From the NCBI GenBank assembly GCA_964022095.1, contig CAXHZO010000004.1:1-64000 (forward strand): a stretch of 64,000 nt of DNA, written 5' to 3'. Under the pieces are notes generated by a model, which saw only the letters and a program-made list of their open reading frames with translations, searched no databases and was not told the origin of the DNA. Shown one piece after another: positions 1-7,620 of this stretch. The stretch's first letter is position 1, and each line of letters begins with the position of its first letter. The DNA comes from an uncultured Arcobacteraceae bacterium (GTDB taxonomy: Bacteria; Campylobacterota; Campylobacteria; Campylobacterales; Arcobacteraceae). The position numbers and the translations under genes were made by a program.

Positions 1-236
1 AAGATAGAAAGCATTGCTTCTATTCTTTCGGGTTTTATATCTGTCATATCTTCTCTGCTCTTGTTTTCTAATGAGATGTATTCATTTCCACTGCTATCAA
101 TTCCTTGAATATAGTTTCTAACAGTTTGAGGATCTTTGTAGTCTTTAAAAACCTCTTTAAAATCCTTACTTTCTAACTTAAGATAAACAAATTCTGATAG
201 AAGTCCATTTTCTTTTAATTCTTTAATAACATTCAT
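1..236 (-). CDS. Second paralogous lipase-like effector, N-terminal 78 aa only (continues beyond window start; not in ORF track)
   Basis: Manual translation MNVIKELKENGLLSEFVYLKLESKDFKEVFKDYKDPQTVRNYIQGIDSSGNEYISLENKSREDMTDIKPERIEAMLSI matches the N-terminus of 950..2407. Nucleotides 1-55 are identical to 2118-2172. ATGA overlap with the stop of 233..934. Confidence 0.9.
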   Translation of the reverse strand, partial: MNVIKELKENGLLSEFVYLKLESKDFKEVFKDYKDPQTVRNYIQGIDSSGNEYISLENKSREDMTDIKPERIEAMLSI

Positions 237-934
237 TTTTTATCCTTTATTCCTATTGTTTCTAATAAAGTTTCTTTTGCATTATGCCCTATATTAGGAA
301 GACTATGTAGACTATGACCAGTTCCACCTACCATCTGTAAAATATTTGTTCTAAAGTAGTTCCCAAATTTATTAAAGTATACATAGTAACTTTCTATCAT
401 TGGCTTCTTTTTATTTGTATCTACTATTTTTAAACTACCAAATTTATAATAGAAAGTTGTAAGCTTATCTTCTGTAATTATTTTATATCTAGCAGTAGAT
501 TTATCTGATAAGTTAAATTCATAGTTACCTTGAGATAGTTTTTTAATTTTTAAAATTTTATAGTTACCTTTTTCATCTTTTACATAAAACTCTAAAAAGT
601 TATTTACTAAATTAAATTCATCTTCATAATATTTGTCAAGCTTTTCTCTTGTATAGCTTTTTAATGGATAACCATAAAGAATATAAGCAATACTATCAAC
701 CTTGCCATCTTTGTCAAGTTTTGCTTTTTCATAAACTTTATACTCAGGATATACTAATTGATAATATATAGCAGTACCTTCTTGTAGAAAGATATCCCAA
801 AAAGGGAATACTAAACAAAAAGTTAGAAATAGCCTTGAAATTAATTTCTTTTTAAATATCTTAAATATTAATTTAGATAGAAAATATGCTACTACTATAT
901 ATAATATGAGTAAAAAAGTGATTATTATGCCCAT
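233..934 (-). CDS. Two-TM membrane protein with soluble C-terminal domain; putative immunity protein (copy 2)
   Basis: 233 aa with two N-terminal hydrophobic segments. About 77% identical (hand count 180/233, gapless) to 2404..3105. Lies immediately upstream of a lipase with an ATGA overlap. Immunity role is inferred. Confidence 0.65.
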   Translation of the reverse strand: MGIIITFLLILYIVVAYFLSKLIFKIFKKKLISRLFLTFCLVFPFWDIFLQEGTAIYYQLVYPEYKVYEKAKLDKDGKVDSIAYILYGYPLKSYTREKLDKYYEDEFNLVNNFLEFYVKDEKGNYKILKIKKLSQGNYEFNLSDKSTARYKIITEDKLTTFYYKFGSLKIVDTNKKKPMIESYYVYFNKFGNYFRTNILQMVGGTGHSLHSLPNIGHNAKETLLETIGIKDKK

Positions 935-949
935 AGTTTTTCCTTTTTG

Positions 950-2407
950 TTAACTCATAGTTTGGATGTTAGAGTTAGAATTGTTAGTTTCATTATTTTG
1001 TAAAGATTGAGCAAAAGAGGGCTTGTATTCTTCTTGGGAGTTAAAAGAGTCTAAATTAAAATTAGGATTAATTTGAATACTAAATATCTCAGTAGAAGAT
1101 AAAGAATTGCCTTCGTTAGAAATAACCTTATCTTGATACTGAGAAATAAATTGTTTGCAATAGTTATTTTCAAAAGAACTAGACAAATCAGTACTAGATA
1201 ATAAAGTAAGCTTGTCTTGTGTAGTATCTAAAGAATTGATTTGAGTAAAAAGATTATTTATATTTTCTAATTTTTCTTCTTTGTTAGATTCAAAATCATT
1301 GATGTATGTATTGAGCGTATCTTCAAATTGTTTAATACCATCAGTAGAACTTAAACCTAAACCATAGCCATTTTTAATAGCTTGTGCTTTTTGTTCTGGT
1401 GTCATCTCTTGCCAGTCTTTTAGTTTTTGAGAATGAGAGTTTGATTGGCTTTGTTCTATCACTTCTTGATTGTATTTATTAATGTCTTCAAGTGATGAAA
1501 TATTATCCTTATCTAGTTTTTCAAGAAGTATATTTGAAGGAATAATACTATGAGCATCAAACCCAAGATTTTCACCGTAAACTTCAATAACTTGACCTAA
1601 ATGTTTAGAACCCTTTATTGTAGTAGCAAGATTAGATAAAACATCTCCGTTTAATAACCCAGTGTCTTGATAAGAGATAATAGAGATATTTTCATTTGCA
1701 AATTTAGACATAGGAGAAGTATATATGTTAGCTTCTTCTAAAACTCTAAAAGCTTTAGGGAATACAGGATGAACTAAATCATAAGAACCTAAAGGGTTGT
1801 ATGCATAACCCTTTATTCCTAAAGTAGAACCAACCTCTTGAACTAAAATACCTCCTAGTGAGTGGCCAGTTAAAGTTAAGTCTTCTTTTTTGATATTATG
1901 CTTTTTTATAGAATTTTCAACAAACTCAATAGCCTCATTGTATTGAACATTGTGATTAGAAGCAATTATACCATCAACAAGCCAGTCTTTTTTACTTTCA
2001 GTACCTCTAAAAGCTATTGTATATTGAGCTGTTTCCTTGTTTTTTAAAAGCATAGCTTGAAAATCAGATCCAAAGAGTCCATCATCAGAAGAGAATTCTT
2101 TAATATCATATTTATCTAAGATAGAAAGCATTGCTTCTATTCTTTCGGGTTTTATATCTGTCATATCTTCTCGTTGTTCTTCTGTTATGGGGTTTTCCTT
2201 TCCTTCTTGAGTAAAAGGTTCTTTCCCTTCTTTTTGTAGTCCTTGAATATAGTTTTTTATGGTTTGAGAACTTTCTCCATTTTTTAAGAAGTCCTCATAG
2301 GTCTCTCCTTTATTTATAAAAGACTTTTTAAAATCATAACTCTCTAACTTAAGATAAACAAATTCAGAAAGAAGTCCATATTCTTTTAATTCTTTAATAA
2401 CATTCAT
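950..2407 (-). CDS. Alpha/beta-hydrolase lipase (Lipase_3/DUF2974/Tle-like) with ~190-aa polar C-terminal extension; putative secreted toxin
   Basis: Motifs IAFRGTE, LTGHSLGG (nucleophile), GDVLS (candidate Asp) and DAHSI (candidate His). No signal peptide. C-tail is Q/N/S/E-rich and ends SLQNNETNNSNSNIQTMS. Confidence 0.8.
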   Translation of the reverse strand: MNVIKELKEYGLLSEFVYLKLESYDFKKSFINKGETYEDFLKNGESSQTIKNYIQGLQKEGKEPFTQEGKENPITEEQREDMTDIKPERIEAMLSILDKYDIKEFSSDDGLFGSDFQAMLLKNKETAQYTIAFRGTESKKDWLVDGIIASNHNVQYNEAIEFVENSIKKHNIKKEDLTLTGHSLGGILVQEVGSTLGIKGYAYNPLGSYDLVHPVFPKAFRVLEEANIYTSPMSKFANENISIISYQDTGLLNGDVLSNLATTIKGSKHLGQVIEVYGENLGFDAHSIIPSNILLEKLDKDNISSLEDINKYNQEVIEQSQSNSHSQKLKDWQEMTPEQKAQAIKNGYGLGLSSTDGIKQFEDTLNTYINDFESNKEEKLENINNLFTQINSLDTTQDKLTLLSSTDLSSSFENNYCKQFISQYQDKVISNEGNSLSSTEIFSIQINPNFNLDSFNSQEEYKPSFAQSLQNNETNNSNSNIQTMS

Positions 2408-3105
2408 TTTTTATCCTTTATCTCTATTTCATCAAGTAAATGACTATTACTATTAGAAGGTATATTTGGTAGTCTATGAAGACTATGTCCTGTTCCACCT
2501 ACCATCTGTAAAATATTTGTTCTAAAGTAGTTTCCAAATTTATTAAAGTATAAGTAGTAACTTTCTATCATTAATTTATTTTCTTTGGTATCTATGATTT
2601 TTTTGTATCCAAATCTATGGTAAAAACTTGTAGTTTCATCTTCTGTAAATATTTTATATCTAGCAGTAGATTTATCTGATAAATTAAATTTATAGTTACC
2701 TTGAGATAGTTTTTTAATCTTTAAAATCTTTTCTTTACCATGTTTATCTTTTACTTTAAATTCTAAAAAGTTATTTACTAAGTTAAATTTTTTGGAATCA
2801 TATTTGTCCAATTGTTCTGGAGTATAATATTTCATTTTATCAGGGTATAAAAGGTATGCTATACTATCAACCTTGCCATCTTTGTCAAGTTTTGCTTTTT
2901 CATAAACTTTATACTCAGGATATACTAATTGGTAGTATATGGCAGTACCTTCTTGTAAAAAGATATCCCAAAATGGGAAGATAAGACAAAAACTTAAAAA
3001 CAATCTTGAAATTAGTTTCTTTTTAAAGATTTTAAATACTAGTTTCGAAAGAAAGTATACTATTGCTATATATATAAATAATATGAAAAAAATTACTATA
3101 CCCAT
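2404..3105 (-). CDS. Two-TM membrane protein; putative immunity protein (copy 1)
   Basis: Paralog of 233..934. Starts 3 bp after the coupling-protein stop and overlaps the lipase start (ATGA). Confidence 0.65.
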   Translation of the reverse strand: MGIVIFFILFIYIAIVYFLSKLVFKIFKKKLISRLFLSFCLIFPFWDIFLQEGTAIYYQLVYPEYKVYEKAKLDKDGKVDSIAYLLYPDKMKYYTPEQLDKYDSKKFNLVNNFLEFKVKDKHGKEKILKIKKLSQGNYKFNLSDKSTARYKIFTEDETTSFYHRFGYKKIIDTKENKLMIESYYLYFNKFGNYFRTNILQMVGGTGHSLHRLPNIPSNSNSHLLDEIEIKDKK

Positions 3106-3108
3106 CTA

Positions 3109-5004
3109 TTATCCTTTATCCCAATGTTTTTTGTTTTCTTCTATTTGTTTAAAAAACTCTTTTTTATTCATATATTGTGTTAAAGGAATTTTTTTATTTA
3201 AATCTTTTCCTTCGTAAGTTACAACTTTTCCTTTTTGTATAACATTTCTCTCTGCATGTGCTACAGCTTTATAAATATTCCCATCGGTTAGAACTAACAT
3301 CTCTCCACTATTCATTTTTTCGATTTCATGATGTTTTATAGCATCTTCTTGTAAAACTTGAAAGTTGTCTTCTGCACTAGTTGTTCCAAATGAACCATTT
3401 CTTTTTTCTTGATAGGTTCTATCTAAATATCTATTTTGTTTAATTTTCTTATTTATCATCTCCGTAACATCAGAACTAGTAACTTTCATTATAATTAAAG
3501 TACCAGTTACATCTAACATTTGTTTCGTTTCTAATCCTTTACCATTATCAACAATATCAATTTGTGCAAAAGATTGAAAGATAGGGATAATTGAAATTCC
3601 TAATGATCTACATTTTGACATTAGTAATCCAAAACCATTAATAATATAAGAACCTATTTCATCAAACACTGCTAAAAATGGTATTTCTGGTTGTATTGCA
3701 AATTTTGCTTTTTGTTGAGCAACGCCTTTTAGTAGTCCAAGCATTAATCTTCCTAATTCTTTTGGTGTTGTATCCGAATCCATTGTTGGTAATGTAACAA
3801 ATAGAATTTTATTATGCTGAATAACTTCCCATAAATTTGTACTAGGATCTTTTGTATTAAATACATTTTTATAATCACTTCCAAGTGTTGTGAGTATTCC
3901 TCTCCAAGCATTTATACTTACGCTAACATCATAAATCCCCTGATTACGCTCAGAATTATTTAATTTCGAATAAATATTTTCTAAAAACTTATTGTTTTGT
4001 GTTGTAATTTTACCTTTTGGATATATTTCAGGATCTTTACTTGTATCAATATCAAATGGAGAGCTTAGAAATTCATTATGATCTATTGATATAGTAGAAG
4101 AGATGTATTTGACAAAATCCATTAATGATGAATTCTTTTTTGCTTCATCTCTATATAAAAGTGCTTCTTCAACAAGCTTAGATAAAGTCATGAATTCAGT
4201 AAGTAGTGAAAAGTTTAAATTAATATTCTCATAGTCACGTTTGTATACAAGAAGTTTCAAAACATTTTTCATAAACTCTTTTTGTTTTGCTTTCCATTGG
4301 TCTTCCTCTCCTATAAGTAAAGAAATTAAAATTTCATATAAAGAGTTTACACTACCACTTTGTAGGGGATTAATAGAATGAGTGTTATCCATATCTAATA
4401 AATTAATATGAATAAAGTCCTTTTCTCTTCCATAAAGTTTTGATAAAGCAAACATCTCTTTTGCAAATTCAGATGTACCTTTACCATCAATTATAAATGC
4501 TCCTCCTCCTAATATAATTTGTTGCTCAGCTAATCCTTTCATTAAAAATGTTTTTCCTGCACCTACTGTTGCAAGTATCATCATGTGTCTTTTGAATTTC
4601 TCAGAATTAAATAATAATGGTCTAATGATATTATTTTTTATATAACTTTTCTTTGCATTACCATAAAATTTTTTAACTTCAACACCTACTGAAAGTAAAT
4701 ATTTATTTTCAGACGAATTTTCAATTATATTCTCATCTTCTTTTTTTGTTTTTTTATTAATAAAAAGTAAAATTGATGTACTTAATGCAATAAATAAAGA
4801 TAAATATGAAAAGTATTTTTCTTTCATTCCATAATTATAATAATCGTAAGCACAATATGCTGTAATAAGAATTCCTATAAAAACAATAGATTTTATTGAA
4901 TATTGTAATAGTTTATTGGATTTAAAAAAATCTGCAAAATTTTCTCTTCTTGGTTTAAAAACTCTTTCTTGTAAATTTTCATGTACTATATTTTCATTAC
5001 TCAT
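3109..5004 (-). CDS. Type IV secretion coupling protein (VirD4/TraD superfamily), DotL/IcmO/TrbC-like
   Basis: Two N-terminal TMs, Walker A ATVGAGKT, FIIDGKG, and Walker B region AVFDEIGSY..GFG..SKCRSLGISIIPIFQ. VTLPTMD..ELGRLMLGLLKG resembles type IVB coupling proteins as recalled. Confidence 0.85.
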   Translation of the reverse strand: MSNENIVHENLQERVFKPRRENFADFFKSNKLLQYSIKSIVFIGILITAYCAYDYYNYGMKEKYFSYLSLFIALSTSILLFINKKTKKEDENIIENSSENKYLLSVGVEVKKFYGNAKKSYIKNNIIRPLLFNSEKFKRHMMILATVGAGKTFLMKGLAEQQIILGGGAFIIDGKGTSEFAKEMFALSKLYGREKDFIHINLLDMDNTHSINPLQSGSVNSLYEILISLLIGEEDQWKAKQKEFMKNVLKLLVYKRDYENINLNFSLLTEFMTLSKLVEEALLYRDEAKKNSSLMDFVKYISSTISIDHNEFLSSPFDIDTSKDPEIYPKGKITTQNNKFLENIYSKLNNSERNQGIYDVSVSINAWRGILTTLGSDYKNVFNTKDPSTNLWEVIQHNKILFVTLPTMDSDTTPKELGRLMLGLLKGVAQQKAKFAIQPEIPFLAVFDEIGSYIINGFGLLMSKCRSLGISIIPIFQSFAQIDIVDNGKGLETKQMLDVTGTLIIMKVTSSDVTEMINKKIKQNRYLDRTYQEKRNGSFGTTSAEDNFQVLQEDAIKHHEIEKMNSGEMLVLTDGNIYKAVAHAERNVIQKGKVVTYEGKDLNKKIPLTQYMNKKEFFKQIEENKKHWDKG

Positions 5005-5797
5005 TATTTAAATCTTTCTTTTCCATAAATTTTTTGTACTTATAAAGTAAGTATGAGCCATTAAGTTTGATTACATTTAGATTGATATTATCTAAGGCAT
5101 TTATAAACTCTCGGTCATTAGAATCATTTATTACTAATGTTTCTAATTGTCCAATTCCTATGTTAAATTCTTTTGTATACTTACTCCATAAATAAATTAA
5201 AAAGAAATCTAAATTATTTTCAAGTTTGTTTAAAGTGTCGTTATAGTTTATAAATATTTCTTTTTCTATTTCTATATAATTTAATAGTTTATTGAATATT
5301 TTATCTTTTAGAGGGTATTTTTTTATTTCATCAATATTTTTGACATATGTATAACAATAGTTTTTATTCATATTTTTTAGATAACTAATTGTATTAGGGG
5401 ATATCGTTTTGTTTGAGCTAGTATAAATATATAATTCATTCTTATCACATGGTACTTCAATTCTATCTGATTTTTCTATTGCATATGATGAAAACGTATT
5501 TATAACTTCTTCTTTATCTATTCCCCAATAGTTTTGTTGTTTTGCATATATTTTTCTAGAGTCAGCATCTTTACTAAAATTAAATATATAGTAAAGTGAT
5601 AGACAAAGAATACATAAAATAAGAATTAGTATATAAATTGCTGTTCTTTGATAGTCAATTATCATATATAAACCCCAAATAAATGATAAAGAATAAAGTG
5701 TTATTAGTAGAACAAGTTCTTTTGATTCTTTTTTATATTTATTTAATCCATAGAAAAATAATATTAGTAGTGAAAATAAAATGCACATTGTAAGCAT
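4997..5797 (-). CDS. Hypothetical membrane protein (3 N-terminal TMs plus soluble domain), coupled to the coupling-protein gene
   Basis: Three hydrophobic segments in the first ~75 aa; 8-bp overlap with the T4CP start. Confidence 0.6.
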   Translation of the reverse strand: MLTMCILFSLLILFFYGLNKYKKESKELVLLITLYSLSFIWGLYMIIDYQRTAIYILILILCILCLSLYYIFNFSKDADSRKIYAKQQNYWGIDKEEVINTFSSYAIEKSDRIEVPCDKNELYIYTSSNKTISPNTISYLKNMNKNYCYTYVKNIDEIKKYPLKDKIFNKLLNYIEIEKEIFINYNDTLNKLENNLDFFLIYLWSKYTKEFNIGIGQLETLVINDSNDREFINALDNINLNVIKLNGSYLLYKYKKFMEKKDLNNE

Positions 5798-5812
5798 AGT
5801 TAAAATCTCCTT

Positions 5813-6199
5813 TTAATATAAGTATGAGAATATTGATAAAACTATAGAGCACGTACTTATAATTATTAAAGAAATAATAAGGGAATTTTTTTGATTTTTT
5901 AGTTTTAGTTTTTCAATCTCAAATTTTCTTTCAAATTCATTTTTTAAATCTTTAGTAAGGTGTTCTTTCATACTTTCAAATTCTGAAGATAAGTAAAGAG
6001 ACATTATCTCATCATTAATGTTAGAAGAAGAAGTATTATTCTTAATTGTATTTACTTTATTATGTATATTTAGTAGCTCTTTAGATATTTTTTCTAAAGA
6101 TGTTAAGTATGTAATTTTATCTTTTTGATATTGTATAGTTATTTCTTGAAACTCATGAGATAACTTGTCCTTTGTATCAGATATTTTTTGTATAAGCAA
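5813..6199 (-). CDS. Hypothetical coiled-coil protein with C-terminal membrane anchor
   Basis: 128 aa, TTG start with upstream GAGGG, helical charged body, hydrophobic C-terminal 20 aa. Confidence 0.6.
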   Translation of the reverse strand: MLIQKISDTKDKLSHEFQEITIQYQKDKITYLTSLEKISKELLNIHNKVNTIKNNTSSSNINDEIMSLYLSSEFESMKEHLTKDLKNEFERKFEIEKLKLKNQKNSLIISLIIISTCSIVLSIFSYLY

Positions 6200-6242
6200 G
6201 TTTTTCCCTCAAAATAATTTTTTAGTATAATATCTATTATTT

Positions 6243-6260
6243 ACTTATTTTAAAATAAGT
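6243..6260. promoter_or_regulatory. Perfect 18-bp palindrome in the divergent promoter region (candidate operator)
   Basis: ACTTATTTT|AAAATAAGT. A second palindrome AAATTTTA-AA-TAAAATTT lies at 6315-6332. Both are AT-rich, so chance occurrence is possible. Confidence 0.35.
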
Positions 6261-6358
6261 TTTTAAGTTATAAATACAGAATATATCTAAAATAATTTTC
6301 AAGAGTATCTAAGCAAATTTTAAATAAAATTTAAGCAATCAGTAAAAGGGGTTTTTAA

Positions 6359-7024
6359 ATGTTTAGAAATTTAGTAAAAGTTGGAGTTAGTGCAACTTTG
6401 TTAGCTCTAGTTGTAACTGGATGTAGCTATAAAAAAGAGGTTACAAGTACAACAGTAAATGACGAAGTTTTAAAAGAGTACAATAAAGTACAAACGACTA
6501 AGCAACACTTAGAAGTAGCTGCAGATATGCAAAAAAATGTAACTACACAAACAGATTTAGAATCAACTATTGCTTCACTTGCAACACAAATGATGCAAAA
6601 TAAAAAAATGGATACCAGAAAGCCAGTATTAATCACTTCTTTTGTTAGACTTGATCAATTTAAGAAAACTACAGAATTTGGTAGAATTGTAAGTGAGAGT
6701 TTAATTAATGAAATGTCAAATAGAGGATTTAATATCATTGAATATAGAGGTCAAATGGCTGTTTCTATAAATGATCAAGGTGAATACTTTATTACAAGAA
6801 AACCCCATAATTTAAAAGATAAAATACCAAATACTTACGTTGTTGTTGGTACATACTCAAGACAACTTGGTAAAATTATGTTAAATGCAAGAGTGATTGA
6901 TAATATCACTGGAAAAATCATTACAAGTGCAAGATCAACTTATAATCATGGGTACGTAAATGATTGTTTAATCTTCAAAGATTGTAGACCTGCAAGAACT
7001 ATTAAAATTATAAAAGAAAAATAG
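6359..7024 (+). CDS. FlgO-family outer-membrane lipoprotein
   Basis: Lipobox VTGC; ITSFVRLD..FGRIVSESLI..RGF..EYR; VVGTYS..LNARVID..IITSA are FlgO-type motifs. Confidence 0.75.
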   Translation: MFRNLVKVGVSATLLALVVTGCSYKKEVTSTTVNDEVLKEYNKVQTTKQHLEVAADMQKNVTTQTDLESTIASLATQMMQNKKMDTRKPVLITSFVRLDQFKKTTEFGRIVSESLINEMSNRGFNIIEYRGQMAVSINDQGEYFITRKPHNLKDKIPNTYVVVGTYSRQLGKIMLNARVIDNITGKIITSARSTYNHGYVNDCLIFKDCRPARTIKIIKEK

Positions 7025-7029
7025 TACAG

Positions 7030-7620
7030 ATGATAAAAATATTTAATATAAAAGTAATATCTCTTTTACTTTTATCAATGTTTTTAACATCGTGTTCATA
7101 CCATAAAATCCCAGTAACTTTTCAAACAGGTGCTAATGACTTTCATTCACTTGTTTCAAAATTAGTTGATGAGTCAGCAGAAAAAATTAAAACTAAAGTT
7201 AAAAAAGATGATATTGTTTTAGTTTCAGATTTTGTGAATTTAGATAAATTAAAAAATAGATCACAATTAGGCTTTTTACTTTCAGATATTTTAAAAGATA
7301 AATTAGTCTCTTTAGATATTGTTGTAAGAGAAGTAGAAATAGGAAAACAGTTTGAACTTGGTTCTACTGGTTTTAATATGCTAACAAGAAACAAAAATGA
7401 AATTATTAGTGATAATATTACTGATAATCAAAGATATGCAGTTGTTGGAACATACTCTATTACTAGTAAAAGTTTAAATGTATTTATTAAATTAATTGAT
7501 ATAAGAACAGGAAATATTTTATCATCATCATATGAAAGAACAGATGTTGATAAAGAAATTATGCAATTAGAAGGACAAGATAATTATAATCCTGTACTTC
7601 GTCCAAATGTAGTTTTATAA
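7030..7620 (+). CDS. FlgO-family outer-membrane lipoprotein (paralog)
   Basis: Lipobox LTSC; VSDFVNLD..LGFLLSD; VVGTYS..IKLIDIRTGNILSS. Confidence 0.75.
   Translation: MIKIFNIKVISLLLLSMFLTSCSYHKIPVTFQTGANDFHSLVSKLVDESAEKIKTKVKKDDIVLVSDFVNLDKLKNRSQLGFLLSDILKDKLVSLDIVVREVEIGKQFELGSTGFNMLTRNKNEIISDNITDNQRYAVVGTYSITSKSLNVFIKLIDIRTGNILSSSYERTDVDKEIMQLEGQDNYNPVLRPNVVL

Follow-up and report, generated by a model that had tools for sequence, protein, structure and literature searches.

A putative bacteria-killing type IV secretion system and toxins with a common C-terminal domain on a genomic island of an uncultured Arcobacteraceae bacterium

The operon at the start of the contig

The first 64,000 nucleotides (hereafter the window) of contig CAXHZO010000004.1 (C4) of the uncultured Arcobacteraceae assembly GCA_964022095.1 (genome G000) begin with part of an island that encodes a type IV secretion system (T4SS) together with predicted toxins and their candidate immunity proteins. 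The map of open reading frames (ORFs) showed seven co-directional genes on the minus strand at window positions 1–6199, in the order cc, tm3, T4CP, tm2A, lipA, tm2B and lipB, with intergenic gaps of 15, −8, 3, −4, 15 and −4 bp. The first gene of the operon, cc (5813–6199, 128 residues), encodes a tail-anchored coiled coil with a transmembrane segment at residues 106–124 by hydropathy. It is followed by tm3 (4997–5797, 266 residues), which combines three N-terminal transmembrane segments, again by hydropathy, with a cytoplasmic domain, and by the gene for a type IV coupling protein (T4CP; 3109–5004, 631 residues). The product of tm2A (2404–3105, 233 residues) is a candidate immunity protein with transmembrane segments at residues 1–19 and 31–49, a KKK-rich loop and a domain of ~180 residues that is predicted to face the periplasm. 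The lipA gene (950–2407, 485 residues) encodes a GHSLGG lipase, composed of an N-terminal α/β-hydrolase domain (about residues 1–320), a linker and a C-terminal tail (residues 357–485, window 953–1339) that is a candidate T4SS translocation domain. A second candidate immunity gene, tm2B (233–934, 233 residues, two N-terminal transmembrane segments), is a paralog of tm2A (77% identical), and of lipB only the 5' part is present (3–236, the first 78 residues, open at the edge); the N-termini of lipA and lipB are 58% identical. The lipases have no transmembrane segment by hydropathy, and lipA has no signal peptide.

The gene order and coordinates, with gaps ranging from −8 to +15 bp, are those of an earlier sequence-only reading of the window. 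That reading had lipB cut by the window edge, which is correct as far as it goes; since base 1 of the window is also base 1 of C4, the gene is interrupted by an assembly break at a repeat. A reading of the operon as a MADS anti-phage defence system was considered and rejected: the T4CP matched the PADLOC model mad8 (8e-18), the other five operon proteins matched no mad model, and a match restricted to the T4CP reflects P-loop similarity.

A common C-terminal domain

When the operon proteins were compared with the whole genome by tblastn, the last ~130 residues of lipA were found to recur at ~90% identity on a further contig, C25 (28.4 kb). A domain of ~125 residues (the tail) ends lipA, P0005 (465 residues, with a glycine zipper), P0003 (362 residues), P0002 (325 residues, known at full length from another assembly), RTX650 (650 residues, a diverged copy) and a Tle1-type protein on a third contig, C29; lipB presumably bears it as well. 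The DNA of the tails of lipA, P0003 and P0005 is 88–97% identical over ~370–470 nt (92–97% for the two pairs that include lipA). This high identity is restricted to the tail and homology ends ~12 nt past the stop codon, which indicates a discrete, recently exchanged module. In unitigs of other marine and seawater sequencing runs, three different upstream continuations were found at the tail boundary. The unitig depth was ~5.7-fold higher over the tail, a summed contig depth that is not a copy number and was not used.

An exhaustive HMMER search with lipA returned 450 proteins at E ≤ 0.001, and relatives of the tail and of the lipase are described from the best 150 of these 450. P0007 is a full-length relative of lipase plus tail, at 56%. 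The tail only was matched in P0096, which has a glycine zipper, in P0108, which is P0002-like, in P0117, which carries PF09994 (3.8e-24), and in P0113 and P0127, of which the N-terminal domains belong to no named family; P0124 and P0088 consist of the tail alone. The extreme C-terminus is strongly conserved, with an Asn/Ser-rich stretch followed by I-Q-T/A-M/I-S/G/N. An AlphaFold2 (AF2) model of the tail, from an 11-row alignment, predicts a helical bundle for residues 1–90 (pLDDT >90) and disorder for the last ~40 residues. When this model was compared with the PDB by Foldseek, 0 of the 82 listed matches reached E ≤ 0.001 (best E 2.3, TM-score ≤0.31), and Pfam gave no match in the tail at E ≤ 0.1; the tail is therefore not an XVIPCD, the VirD4-binding domain of the Xanthomonas effectors. 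Profile A7 yielded no tail relative among 593 pattern matches in a metagenome scan. Tail matches of 20–25 bits in six other genomes of the order were taken as coiled-coil noise, and none of these genomes is T4CP-positive.

Toxins and their partner genes

At least seven predicted toxins were recognised, which comprise class-3 lipases, a Tle1-type phospholipase, glycine-zipper and RTX proteins, and others without a named family. The tail proteins are devoid of signal peptides and, glycine-zipper segments excepted, of transmembrane segments. Directly upstream of each of them lies a small gene for a protein with two transmembrane segments, a lipoprotein-like protein, a protein with a signal peptide or an ankyrin-repeat (Ank) protein, the stop and start codons overlapping or nearly abutting. 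RTX repeats were detected in RTX650 (6.9e-14) and in a 418-residue protein (8e-7), and a degenerate repeat lies just before the tail of P0005.

By its GxSxG motif, a Ser-Asp-His triad recognised from conservation and a predicted α/β-hydrolase fold, lipA fits the description of a class-3/Mbeg1-like lipase. Its Pfam score was 21.2 bits for Mbeg1-like (PF11187; cut-off 21.1) and 19.6 bits for Lipase_3, which is under the cut-off of 22; the protein database additionally gives PF26363 for lipA. Residues 1–350 of lipA were aligned with 31 of the 150 listed matches, selected for a length of ~250–600 residues and coverage of the domain. In these 32 sequences S183 of the GHSLGG motif is invariant, and D255 and H286 are conserved in ≥90%. 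The AF2 model of lipA (pLDDT 87.5, pTM 0.87) gave 96 PDB matches at E ≤ 0.001, the best of which (E 2e-6) was 9cys_A, a lipase effector of the Enterobacter cloacae type VI secretion system (T6SS); fungal class-3 lipases and feruloyl esterases came next. Elsewhere among the best 150 relatives, the lipase domain heads the PAAR-Rhs protein P0008 and RTX proteins.

The tm2A protein matched no named family. Among 401 genomes of the order, G000 included, 10 have tm2 homologs; the homologs stand directly upstream of a lipase in G000 (twice), in the complete genome of a relative (G002), in G003 and on the metagenome contig L071, and several others (in G092, G003 and elsewhere) stand alone, as orphan immunity genes do. 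The adjacency of tm2 and lipase, combined with the predicted envelope location of tm2, is the layout of an effector-immunity pair, in which neutralisation of the lipase by tm2 is putative.

Two cassettes of this kind were found in G002 between VgrG-DUF2169 and a PAAR-Rhs gene, one consisting of tm2 and a truncated lipase and the other of a homolog of C25_4226 and a glycine-zipper toxin. They lie a few kb from TssA, TssB, TssC and TssF, and the T4CP query had no match in G002. The tm2-lipase pair of G003, which has RTX repeats, is located downstream of toxin fragments and an HlyD-family gene. The T6SS-type contexts indicate that the cassettes are of the interbacterial-antagonism kind and move between delivery systems. 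In G000 itself, which is 99.99% complete, the T6SS components TssC and Hcp were not found, and the T4SS is the only injection machine. The truncated lipase (L068:14600–15196) and the glycine-zipper toxin (L068:15686–16750) of G002 have a C-terminal motif of ~15 residues in common, which is unlike the G000 tail and may be a further tag specific to one system or the scar of a recombination.

On genomic evidence, the immunity-upstream-of-toxin layout proposed in the sequence-only reading holds, with tm2-lipase adjacency at loci in G000, G002, G003 and L071. The same is true of its view of the lipase as an effector-type enzyme, given the match to 9cys_A, and of its impression of an interbacterial toxin system, given the T6SS-type cassettes and the envelope-located partners. 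Its array of lipase toxins is real in that the lipases are present; the arsenal is wider, and is united by the shared tail.

Extent and boundaries of the island

Contig C25 is one long minus-strand gene run. T4SS-type genes on it encode an SLT/VirB1-like transglycosylase (4e-13), a protein with a weak T4SS-pilin match (6e-4) and a 795-residue ATPase; a classical AAA+ ATPase (PF00004) and ~15 small secreted or membrane proteins without a family are also encoded, and RTX, glycine-zipper and ankyrin proteins are present at both ends. In an ESM Atlas look-up, the 795-residue ATPase was structurally nearest to VirB4-class clusters (P-loop_TraG/TraC-like, TrsE, VirB4-family and IncI1 TraU), with TM-scores of 0.53–0.58 by query. 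By sequence, a three-sequence profile retrieved only HerA, FtsK and EccC entries, and the single sequence gave E ≥ 0.04. Apart from the weak SLT/VirB1-like and pilin matches, no VirB-family match of Pfam or NCBIfam was found on the island. PF03135 and PF02534 are absent from the whole G000 genome, and no match to a VirB11/DotB-type family was found among the island proteins scanned. The complement of ATPases is unusual for a T4SS.

The AAA+ ATPase (C25:22565–23698, equivalent to L002:8565–9698; PF00004, 2.9e-19) has homologs in G046, L015, G116 and L072 and is kept in every version of the cluster. A 312-residue gene (C25:15487–16425) between the SLT gene and that for the VirB4-class ATPase is a paralog of the N-terminal part of this ATPase; its product is 26–27% identical over ~310 residues to plasmid VirB4-like proteins, and the 31-kb plasmid described below has no such extra gene. 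At C25:5086–5667, beside the last T4SS genes, lies a second copy of the lipoprotein-like gene found upstream of P0002 (C25:578–1147), with no toxin after it, which makes it a candidate orphan immunity gene within the island.

The layout was found again in a second organism, on two metagenome contigs of the same sample (L071 and L072) that were retrieved with query P0006. L072 carries, contiguously and with gaps of −8 to 19 bp, a tail-only ORF, cc (57–62% identical to the window gene), tm3 (56%) and T4CP (79%), followed by C25-type genes, namely homologs of C25_24024, C25_23710, the AAA+ ATPase and the next seven C25 genes. L071 carries a Tle1-type protein with tail; a lipoprotein and a P0003-like protein with tail; tm2 and a lipase with tail; and an Ank protein and a homolog of RTX650. 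The succession of lipase, Ank and RTX650 on L071 bridges the gap between the left end of C4 and the right end of C25. Furthermore, homologs of the T4CP (46–51% identical) and of tm3 lie inside a C25-like cluster in G046, on the 31-kb Campylobacter corcagiensis plasmid and on contigs of Campylobacter metagenome-assembled genomes (MAGs), so that the operon of the window and C25 represent one machine.

The boundaries of the island follow from a complete genome of the same genus (G001). Its flgO-recJ-pyrG region is 86% identical to the window, with synteny resuming at about window position 6290, and ~0.6 kb past flgO it runs into DNA that matches C29:5237–12494 at 86%. Window position ~6300 and C29:5237 thus delimit the island, which G001 does not have. 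The left end of C25 has an exact 55-nt overlap with the lipA linker, as is typical where a k-mer assembly breaks at a repeat, and the right end of C25 and the left end of C29 are cut at the same point in paralogous Ank genes (90.5% DNA identity over 283 nt). C29:1–5236 encodes this second Ank protein, two paralogous signal-peptide proteins, a 593-residue Tle1-type protein and a 444-residue membrane protein, which is only a possible member of the island. The 593-residue protein has a T6SS_Tle1-like domain (PF09994, 3.8e-18, 66 bits against a cut-off of 27) and ends with the terminal signature of the tail.

The assembled parts (C4:1–6300, the whole of C25 and C29:1–5236) total ~40 kb, which is a minimum for the island, and the operon at window 1–6199 forms its promoter-proximal end. 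The island appears to be chromosomal, placed across assembly gaps between flgO-recJ-pyrG and DNA syntenic with the G001 chromosome. The order we infer is flgO, cc, tm3, T4CP, tm2A-lipA, tm2B-lipB, a gap, Ank-RTX650, lipoprotein-P0003, ~20 T4SS genes, immunity-toxin pairs, a second gap, Ank, two secreted proteins, the Tle1-type phospholipase and core genes. Family scans detected no relaxase, integrase, replication or partition gene in the assembled island. The sequence-only reading had expected a T4SS encoded elsewhere in the genome; its genes lie just past the contig break in the same island, on C25, and their homologs are contiguous with the T4CP on L072. That reading had pointed to the sequence left of the window for more pairs and for channel genes; T4SS genes are found on C25 and more toxin genes with their partners on C25 and C29, and the relaxase that it had also thought of is not among the genes of the assembled island.

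At the right-hand boundary, the divergent intergenic region between cc (minus strand) and the first flgO gene (plus strand), window 6200–6358, is the likely promoter region of the operon. A GAGGGA motif resembling a ribosome-binding site precedes a TTG start in this region, and a promoter scan was at chance, with 48 sites against 45 ± 7 expected. The G+C content is 0.21–0.30 over window 1–6500, compared with 0.28–0.32 for the recJ/pyrG genes to the right. The flanking genes (window 6359–7620) are two tandem genes for FlgO-domain lipoproteins (PF17680, 4e-35 and 4e-15), both of which are present in G001 without the island. At the far edge, the 444-residue protein (C29:3932–5266) has many transmembrane segments fused to a spermine/spermidine-synthase-like domain; the G+C content around it is only 0.18–0.26, and synteny with G001 is back only at the 3' end of the gene (C29:5237).

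The coupling protein, tm3 and cc

The T4CP has an N-terminal transmembrane segment (residues 64–82 by hydropathy) and Walker A (GAGKT) and Walker B (FDEIGS) motifs that are invariant in alignment A5. It passes the Pfam cut-offs for TraG-D_C (PF12696; 4.5e-10, 40 bits against 22) and TrwB_AAD_bind (PF10412; 1.6e-5, 24.4 bits against 20.5). A membrane anchor, Walker A and B motifs, and TraG-D_C and TrwB-type domains place the protein in the T4CP superfamily (VirD4/TraG/TraD/DotL). Within this superfamily the best NCBIfam model was TrbC_conju (1.3e-31), with 109.8 bits against a cut-off of 800; SXT_TraD (2.1e-19), TOL TraD, CD1115 and F-type TraD followed, and no VirD4 model was listed. The sole sequence match in the PDB was DotL (6sz9, 1.4e-19), with the best stretch at query residues 128–278 and a length of 631 residues for the query compared with 783 for the DotL chain. 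With scores so far under the equivalog cut-offs, the protein is a distant T4CP nearest to the DotL/TrbC branch, not a member of that family. This agrees with the sequence-only reading, which had likened it to DotL/TrbC and not to VirD4. The same reading had taken the T4CP for an additional, effector-dedicated coupling module, a view that has to be given up: scans of the genome found no other T4CP in G000, and on plasmids the gene is, together with tm3, a core gene of the cluster.

An insertion of ~21 residues between Walker A and Walker B (about residues 318–340) is common to the T4CPs of G000 and L072 and missing in the six plasmid and MAG homologs of A5. Homologs of tm3 lie directly upstream of the T4CP in G046, L008, L009, L015, G116, L030 and L072; by its position tm3 is a conserved partner gene in every version of this T4SS. 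The earlier remark that no relaxase or channel gene lies between the T4CP and flgO is borne out in terms of family matches, with the qualification that tm3 proves to be a conserved T4SS-cluster gene. In icmP(dotM)-icmO(dotL) and in trbA-trbC, too, a small membrane protein is encoded directly upstream of the coupling protein. A five-sequence profile of tm3 gave only a spurious YajC match in the PDB (E 1.3) and no DotM match. The resemblance to the DotL system is limited in further respects. The T4CP of the window is without the long C-terminal adaptor-binding extension of DotL, tm3 has no detectable similarity to DotM, and no Pfam or NCBIfam match to IcmS, IcmW or DotN was obtained among the island proteins scanned, for which remote homology is possible.

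No family of Pfam or NCBIfam reached a cut-off for cc. A homolog (57–62% identical) occupies the same position in L072, and none was found in the plasmid-borne clusters (best E 0.2); cc is restricted to the toxin-bearing lineage and a candidate adaptor. A complex prediction of T4CP residues 95–631, tm3 residues 75–266 and the tail scored 0.00 against a mark of 0.32 and was run without controls; it speaks neither for nor against binding.

Plasmid-borne relatives of the secretion system

Counted with G000, the T4CP is present in 3 of 61 relatives, 2 of 184 genomes of the family and 6 of 401 genomes of the order. Homologs that are 43–54% identical were found on 10 Campylobacter and Helicobacter plasmids of 31–123 kb. 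The smallest, the C. corcagiensis plasmid NZ_CP063077.1 (L015; 31,089 bp), carries little beyond this cluster, ImmA/IrrE, Fic and a RepB fragment, and is typed as non-mobilizable by MOB-suite; the contig of G046 additionally has ParA and AbiEii. In a distant version of the cluster in G116, of which the T4CP is 33% identical, the product of a neighbouring gene matched the helicase part of F TraI (1e-13). The plasmid homologs and the TraI-like neighbour mark the family as conjugation-associated.

The Campylobacter and Helicobacter plasmid T4SSs, of which NZ_CP063077.1 is an example, and the island have a homologous gene set and order, with identities of 27–54%. Common to both are the pilin-like protein, tm3, the T4CP, a multi-spanning membrane protein of 700–770 residues, the AAA+ ATPase, SLT and the VirB4-class ATPase. 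ParA, Rep, ImmA/IrrE, Fic, AbiEii and genes for 579- and 265-residue proteins belong to the plasmids alone; the 579- and 265-residue genes, which lie upstream of the AAA+ ATPase, and ImmA/IrrE gave no tblastn match anywhere in G000. Conversely, the plasmid T4SSs have no cc, T4CP insertion, tail or toxin-immunity pairs, and the lipase (beyond weak core matches), tm2 and the tail were not found on the plasmids. As the homologous T4CPs reside mostly on plasmids without lipases and one is located beside a TraI-like relaxase, the ancestral family was conjugative; as the tail, cc and the T4CP insertion are missing from the plasmid relatives, the association with toxins is a trait of one lineage. A coupling protein found always with a relaxase, and only sporadically with lipases, is what the sequence-only reading had named as speaking against itself; this pattern is seen in part, in that the homologs are mostly on lipase-free plasmids and one stands beside a TraI-like relaxase.

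The ten plasmids, largely made up of this T4SS cluster, are annotated almost wholly as hypothetical proteins. They probably represent an unclassified conjugation (mating pair formation) type with an unrecognised relaxase, for which the protein of 579–613 residues encoded upstream of the AAA+ ATPase, with no PDB or Pfam match, is a candidate; the 613-residue version of G046 gave no match in the PDB. Outside the window, G000 contains two paralogous islands of ~8 kb (C10:57468–65134 and C12:2208–10343) with 74–81% DNA identity. Each has a PF03432 relaxase (528–529 residues), a small upstream gene and genes for secreted or membrane proteins, and both lack a T4CP and VirB4. As candidate mobilizable elements they would depend on a T4SS supplied in trans. 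PF08751 is absent from G000.

Interpretation

The observations are the gene content of the island, the shared tail, the island boundaries and a layout that is kept in a second organism. From these we judge it rather likely, with considerable reservation, that the island encodes a bacteria-killing T4SS with at least seven toxin-immunity pairs, analogous but unrelated to the X-T4SS of Xanthomonas. Recognition, translocation, toxicity and immunity are the steps that we infer from the sequences. The toxins, having no signal peptide, would be made in the cytoplasm, and the DotL/TrbC-like coupling protein would recognise their common C-terminal domain of ~125 residues; the lineage-specific insertion of the coupling protein, tm3 or cc may mediate this step. 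The T4SS would inject the toxins into neighbouring bacteria on contact, where the lipases, the phospholipase and the membrane toxins would attack the envelope of the target; immunity proteins of membrane or lipoprotein type, whose genes immediately precede those of the toxins, would shield sister cells. The machine would have descended from a conjugative-plasmid T4SS of the Campylobacterales, and the toxin modules would be shared with the T6SS arsenals of relatives.

Several findings weigh against this reading. The case for secretion, toxicity, immunity and killing is a genomic prediction, and the tail is linked to the T4CP by genomic proximity in two organisms that, being related, do not count as independent. 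Strong tail matches were obtained in only one of the 401 genomes of the order with profile A2, which recovered the tail copies of G000 itself, and with profile A6 the tail was found in none of the five other T4CP-positive genomes, in a scan without a positive control; the tail is thus not a general substrate signal of this type of T4SS. The RTX repeats of RTX650 and the 418-residue protein, and the degenerate one of P0005, fit a C-terminal signal for type I secretion (T1SS). The signals of T1SSs are C-terminal and uncleaved, and the main rival is that the tail is such a signal, with HlyB/HlyD/TolC exporting the toxins as diffusible or surface bacteriocin-like proteins and the position on the island being due to co-mobilisation. 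In some relatives of the lipase (P0020, P0027, P0032, P0043 and P0050) a long RTX array is part of the protein, the tm2-lipase-RTX pair of G003 is downstream of an HlyD-family (HlyD_3) gene, and G000 has two complete sets of outer membrane protein, ABC transporter and membrane fusion protein. Both sets are remote from the island, however, one beside a giant adhesin-like ORF and the other at a contig edge, and no ABC, membrane fusion or TolC gene is present in the assembled island, L071 or L072, although the island is not contiguous in the assembly and its gaps could conceal an ABC exporter or a relaxase. Pfam detects no RTX repeats in lipA, P0002, P0003 and the Tle1-type protein; for lipA the missing HemolysinCabind match sets it apart from RTX substrates, which is not decisive for the tail itself. 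Moreover, in both organisms with this layout the toxin genes form part of the T4SS operon, in G000 directly after the T4CP, and immunity proteins located in the periplasm or membrane, together with T6SS-type toxin families, suggest injected and not free toxins. We therefore regard export by a T1SS as unlikely.

The island could also be an integrative and conjugative element, possibly decaying, of which the T4SS and T4CP move DNA (for instance the C10/C12 relaxase islands) and the toxin pairs are addiction or exclusion cargo and not substrates. The wider T4SS family is plasmid-borne, the ten plasmids carrying ParA, RepB-fragment, ImmA/IrrE and AbiEii genes, and the G116 version is next to a TraI-like relaxase-helicase; DNA transfer is thus the ancestral and possibly the current function. 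In addition, the two PF03432 relaxases of G000 are orphans without a T4CP of their own, and a T4CP in just 2 of 184 family genomes is what a mobile element would give. Of the hallmarks of a conjugative element, the island has the T4CP and the VirB4-class ATPase, but no relaxase family match in its assembled parts, nor an integrase, replication or partition gene; the 579-residue, 265-residue and ImmA/IrrE genes of the plasmids are missing from G000, and neither the plasmids nor the T4SS island encode relatives of the C10 proteins. DNA transfer with mere cargo would also leave unexplained that a single recombining C-terminal domain with a conserved terminus is found on unrelated toxins, and that only the toxin-bearing lineage has cc and the T4CP insertion. 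We consider this explanation distinctly improbable, and conjugation could possibly coexist with toxin delivery as a dual function. To injection into eukaryotic cells (protist grazers or a host) as in Dot/Icm, with the upstream genes serving as chaperones or for self-protection only, we give scarcely any weight. In its favour, the T4CP is nearest to DotL, two of the island genes encode ankyrin repeats, marine and seawater runs repeatedly contain the organism, and phospholipases are common among anti-eukaryotic effectors. Yet each toxin has an envelope-located partner, of which homologs are orphaned in other bacteria, the same cassettes are found in an antibacterial-type T6SS VgrG/PAAR-Rhs island, each Ank gene takes the place of an immunity gene, ahead of a single toxin or a group of toxins, and no Dot/Icm component family besides the T4CP was detected.

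Relation to known antibacterial secretion systems

The X-T4SS, as described in PMC6536674, is chromosomal, has a VirB7 with a C-terminal N0 domain and all twelve class-A VirB/VirD4 subunits, and delivers effectors with a C-terminal, VirD4-binding XVIPCD of ~120 residues. Immunity genes lie upstream of the effectors, and the effector domains include Lipase3, DUF2974 (PF11187) and DUF2235 (PF09994) (PMC6536674). Compared with that description, the bacteria-killing system proposed here is alike in its chromosomal location, in variable N-terminal enzymatic domains that include class-3 lipase/DUF2974 and DUF2235/Tle1, in a common C-terminal domain of ~120 residues with a disordered polar end, and in small ORFs with the signal domain only (P0088 here); envelope-located immunity genes are directly upstream and some pairs lie within the T4SS locus. 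It differs in that class-A VirB/VirD4 families were not found, in a T4CP nearest to DotL/TrbC and in an extra, classical AAA+ ATPase; the tail is not an XVIPCD, the host belongs to the Campylobacterales and the activity is predicted.

The kib locus of Pseudomonas putida IsoF is an acquired island with a type IVB T4SS for which contact-dependent killing of bacteria was demonstrated by experiment (PMC9519443). Both cases concern a T4SS other than class A on a horizontally acquired island with effector and immunity genes inside. The account of kib (PMC9519443) lists 17 recognisable Dot/Icm homologs, including DotH, DotG, DotF and DotD, whereas only the T4CP is recognisable here, and it describes one cytosolic effector-immunity pair and no common signal domain, in contrast to at least seven pairs, envelope-located immunity proteins and a modular tail. 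With T6SS lipase effectors (Tle1/DUF2235; the E. cloacae Tle-Tli pair, PDB 9cys and 7ubz) the island toxins share the type of catalytic domain, adjacent immunity genes and the cassettes of G002; unlike these effectors, they bear the tail, are encoded in a T4SS operon in a genome without a T6SS, and have no PAAR, VgrG or adaptor genes nearby.

In the sources cited, interbacterial killing by T4SSs is known from two machine types, the X-T4SS of Xanthomonadales and the kib system of P. putida. Antibacterial toxins delivered by T4SSs are thus known already; this machine and this signal domain are not. In the open-access literature no account was found of a bacteria-killing T4SS in Campylobacterota, of this tail or of this plasmid T4SS type, and the text searched of a 2025 review of T4SS nomenclature does not mention Campylobacter. 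To the more specific proposition that the island represents a third, independently evolved lineage of bacteria-killing T4SSs we would give slightly less than an even chance; such a lineage would have arisen from an unclassified plasmid conjugation machine of the Campylobacterales, equipped with a DotL-like T4CP and a classical AAA+ ATPase, via a new modular C-terminal translocation domain, the cc adaptor, the T4CP insertion and captured T6SS effector-immunity cassettes. If so, the same toxins would have been re-addressed between secretion systems by a swap of delivery tags. If the bacteria-killing function is correct, conjugation systems would have been turned into antibacterial weapons several times, the tail would offer a new, easily spotted translocation tag by which T4SS toxins could be searched for in genomes, and the island would be a concrete case of toxin-immunity cassettes moving between T6SS, possibly T1SS, and T4SS. 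The analysis also brings to light a family of plasmid T4SSs in Campylobacter and Helicobacter, which is classed as non-mobilizable by current typing tools.

Occurrence in marine samples

Sequence near-identical to window positions 1–6400 (≥0.90 of sampled words) was found in metagenome runs of marine samples and seawater. The runs belong to four studies, and the genome possibly stems from one of them. The organism and its island thus recur in marine samples.

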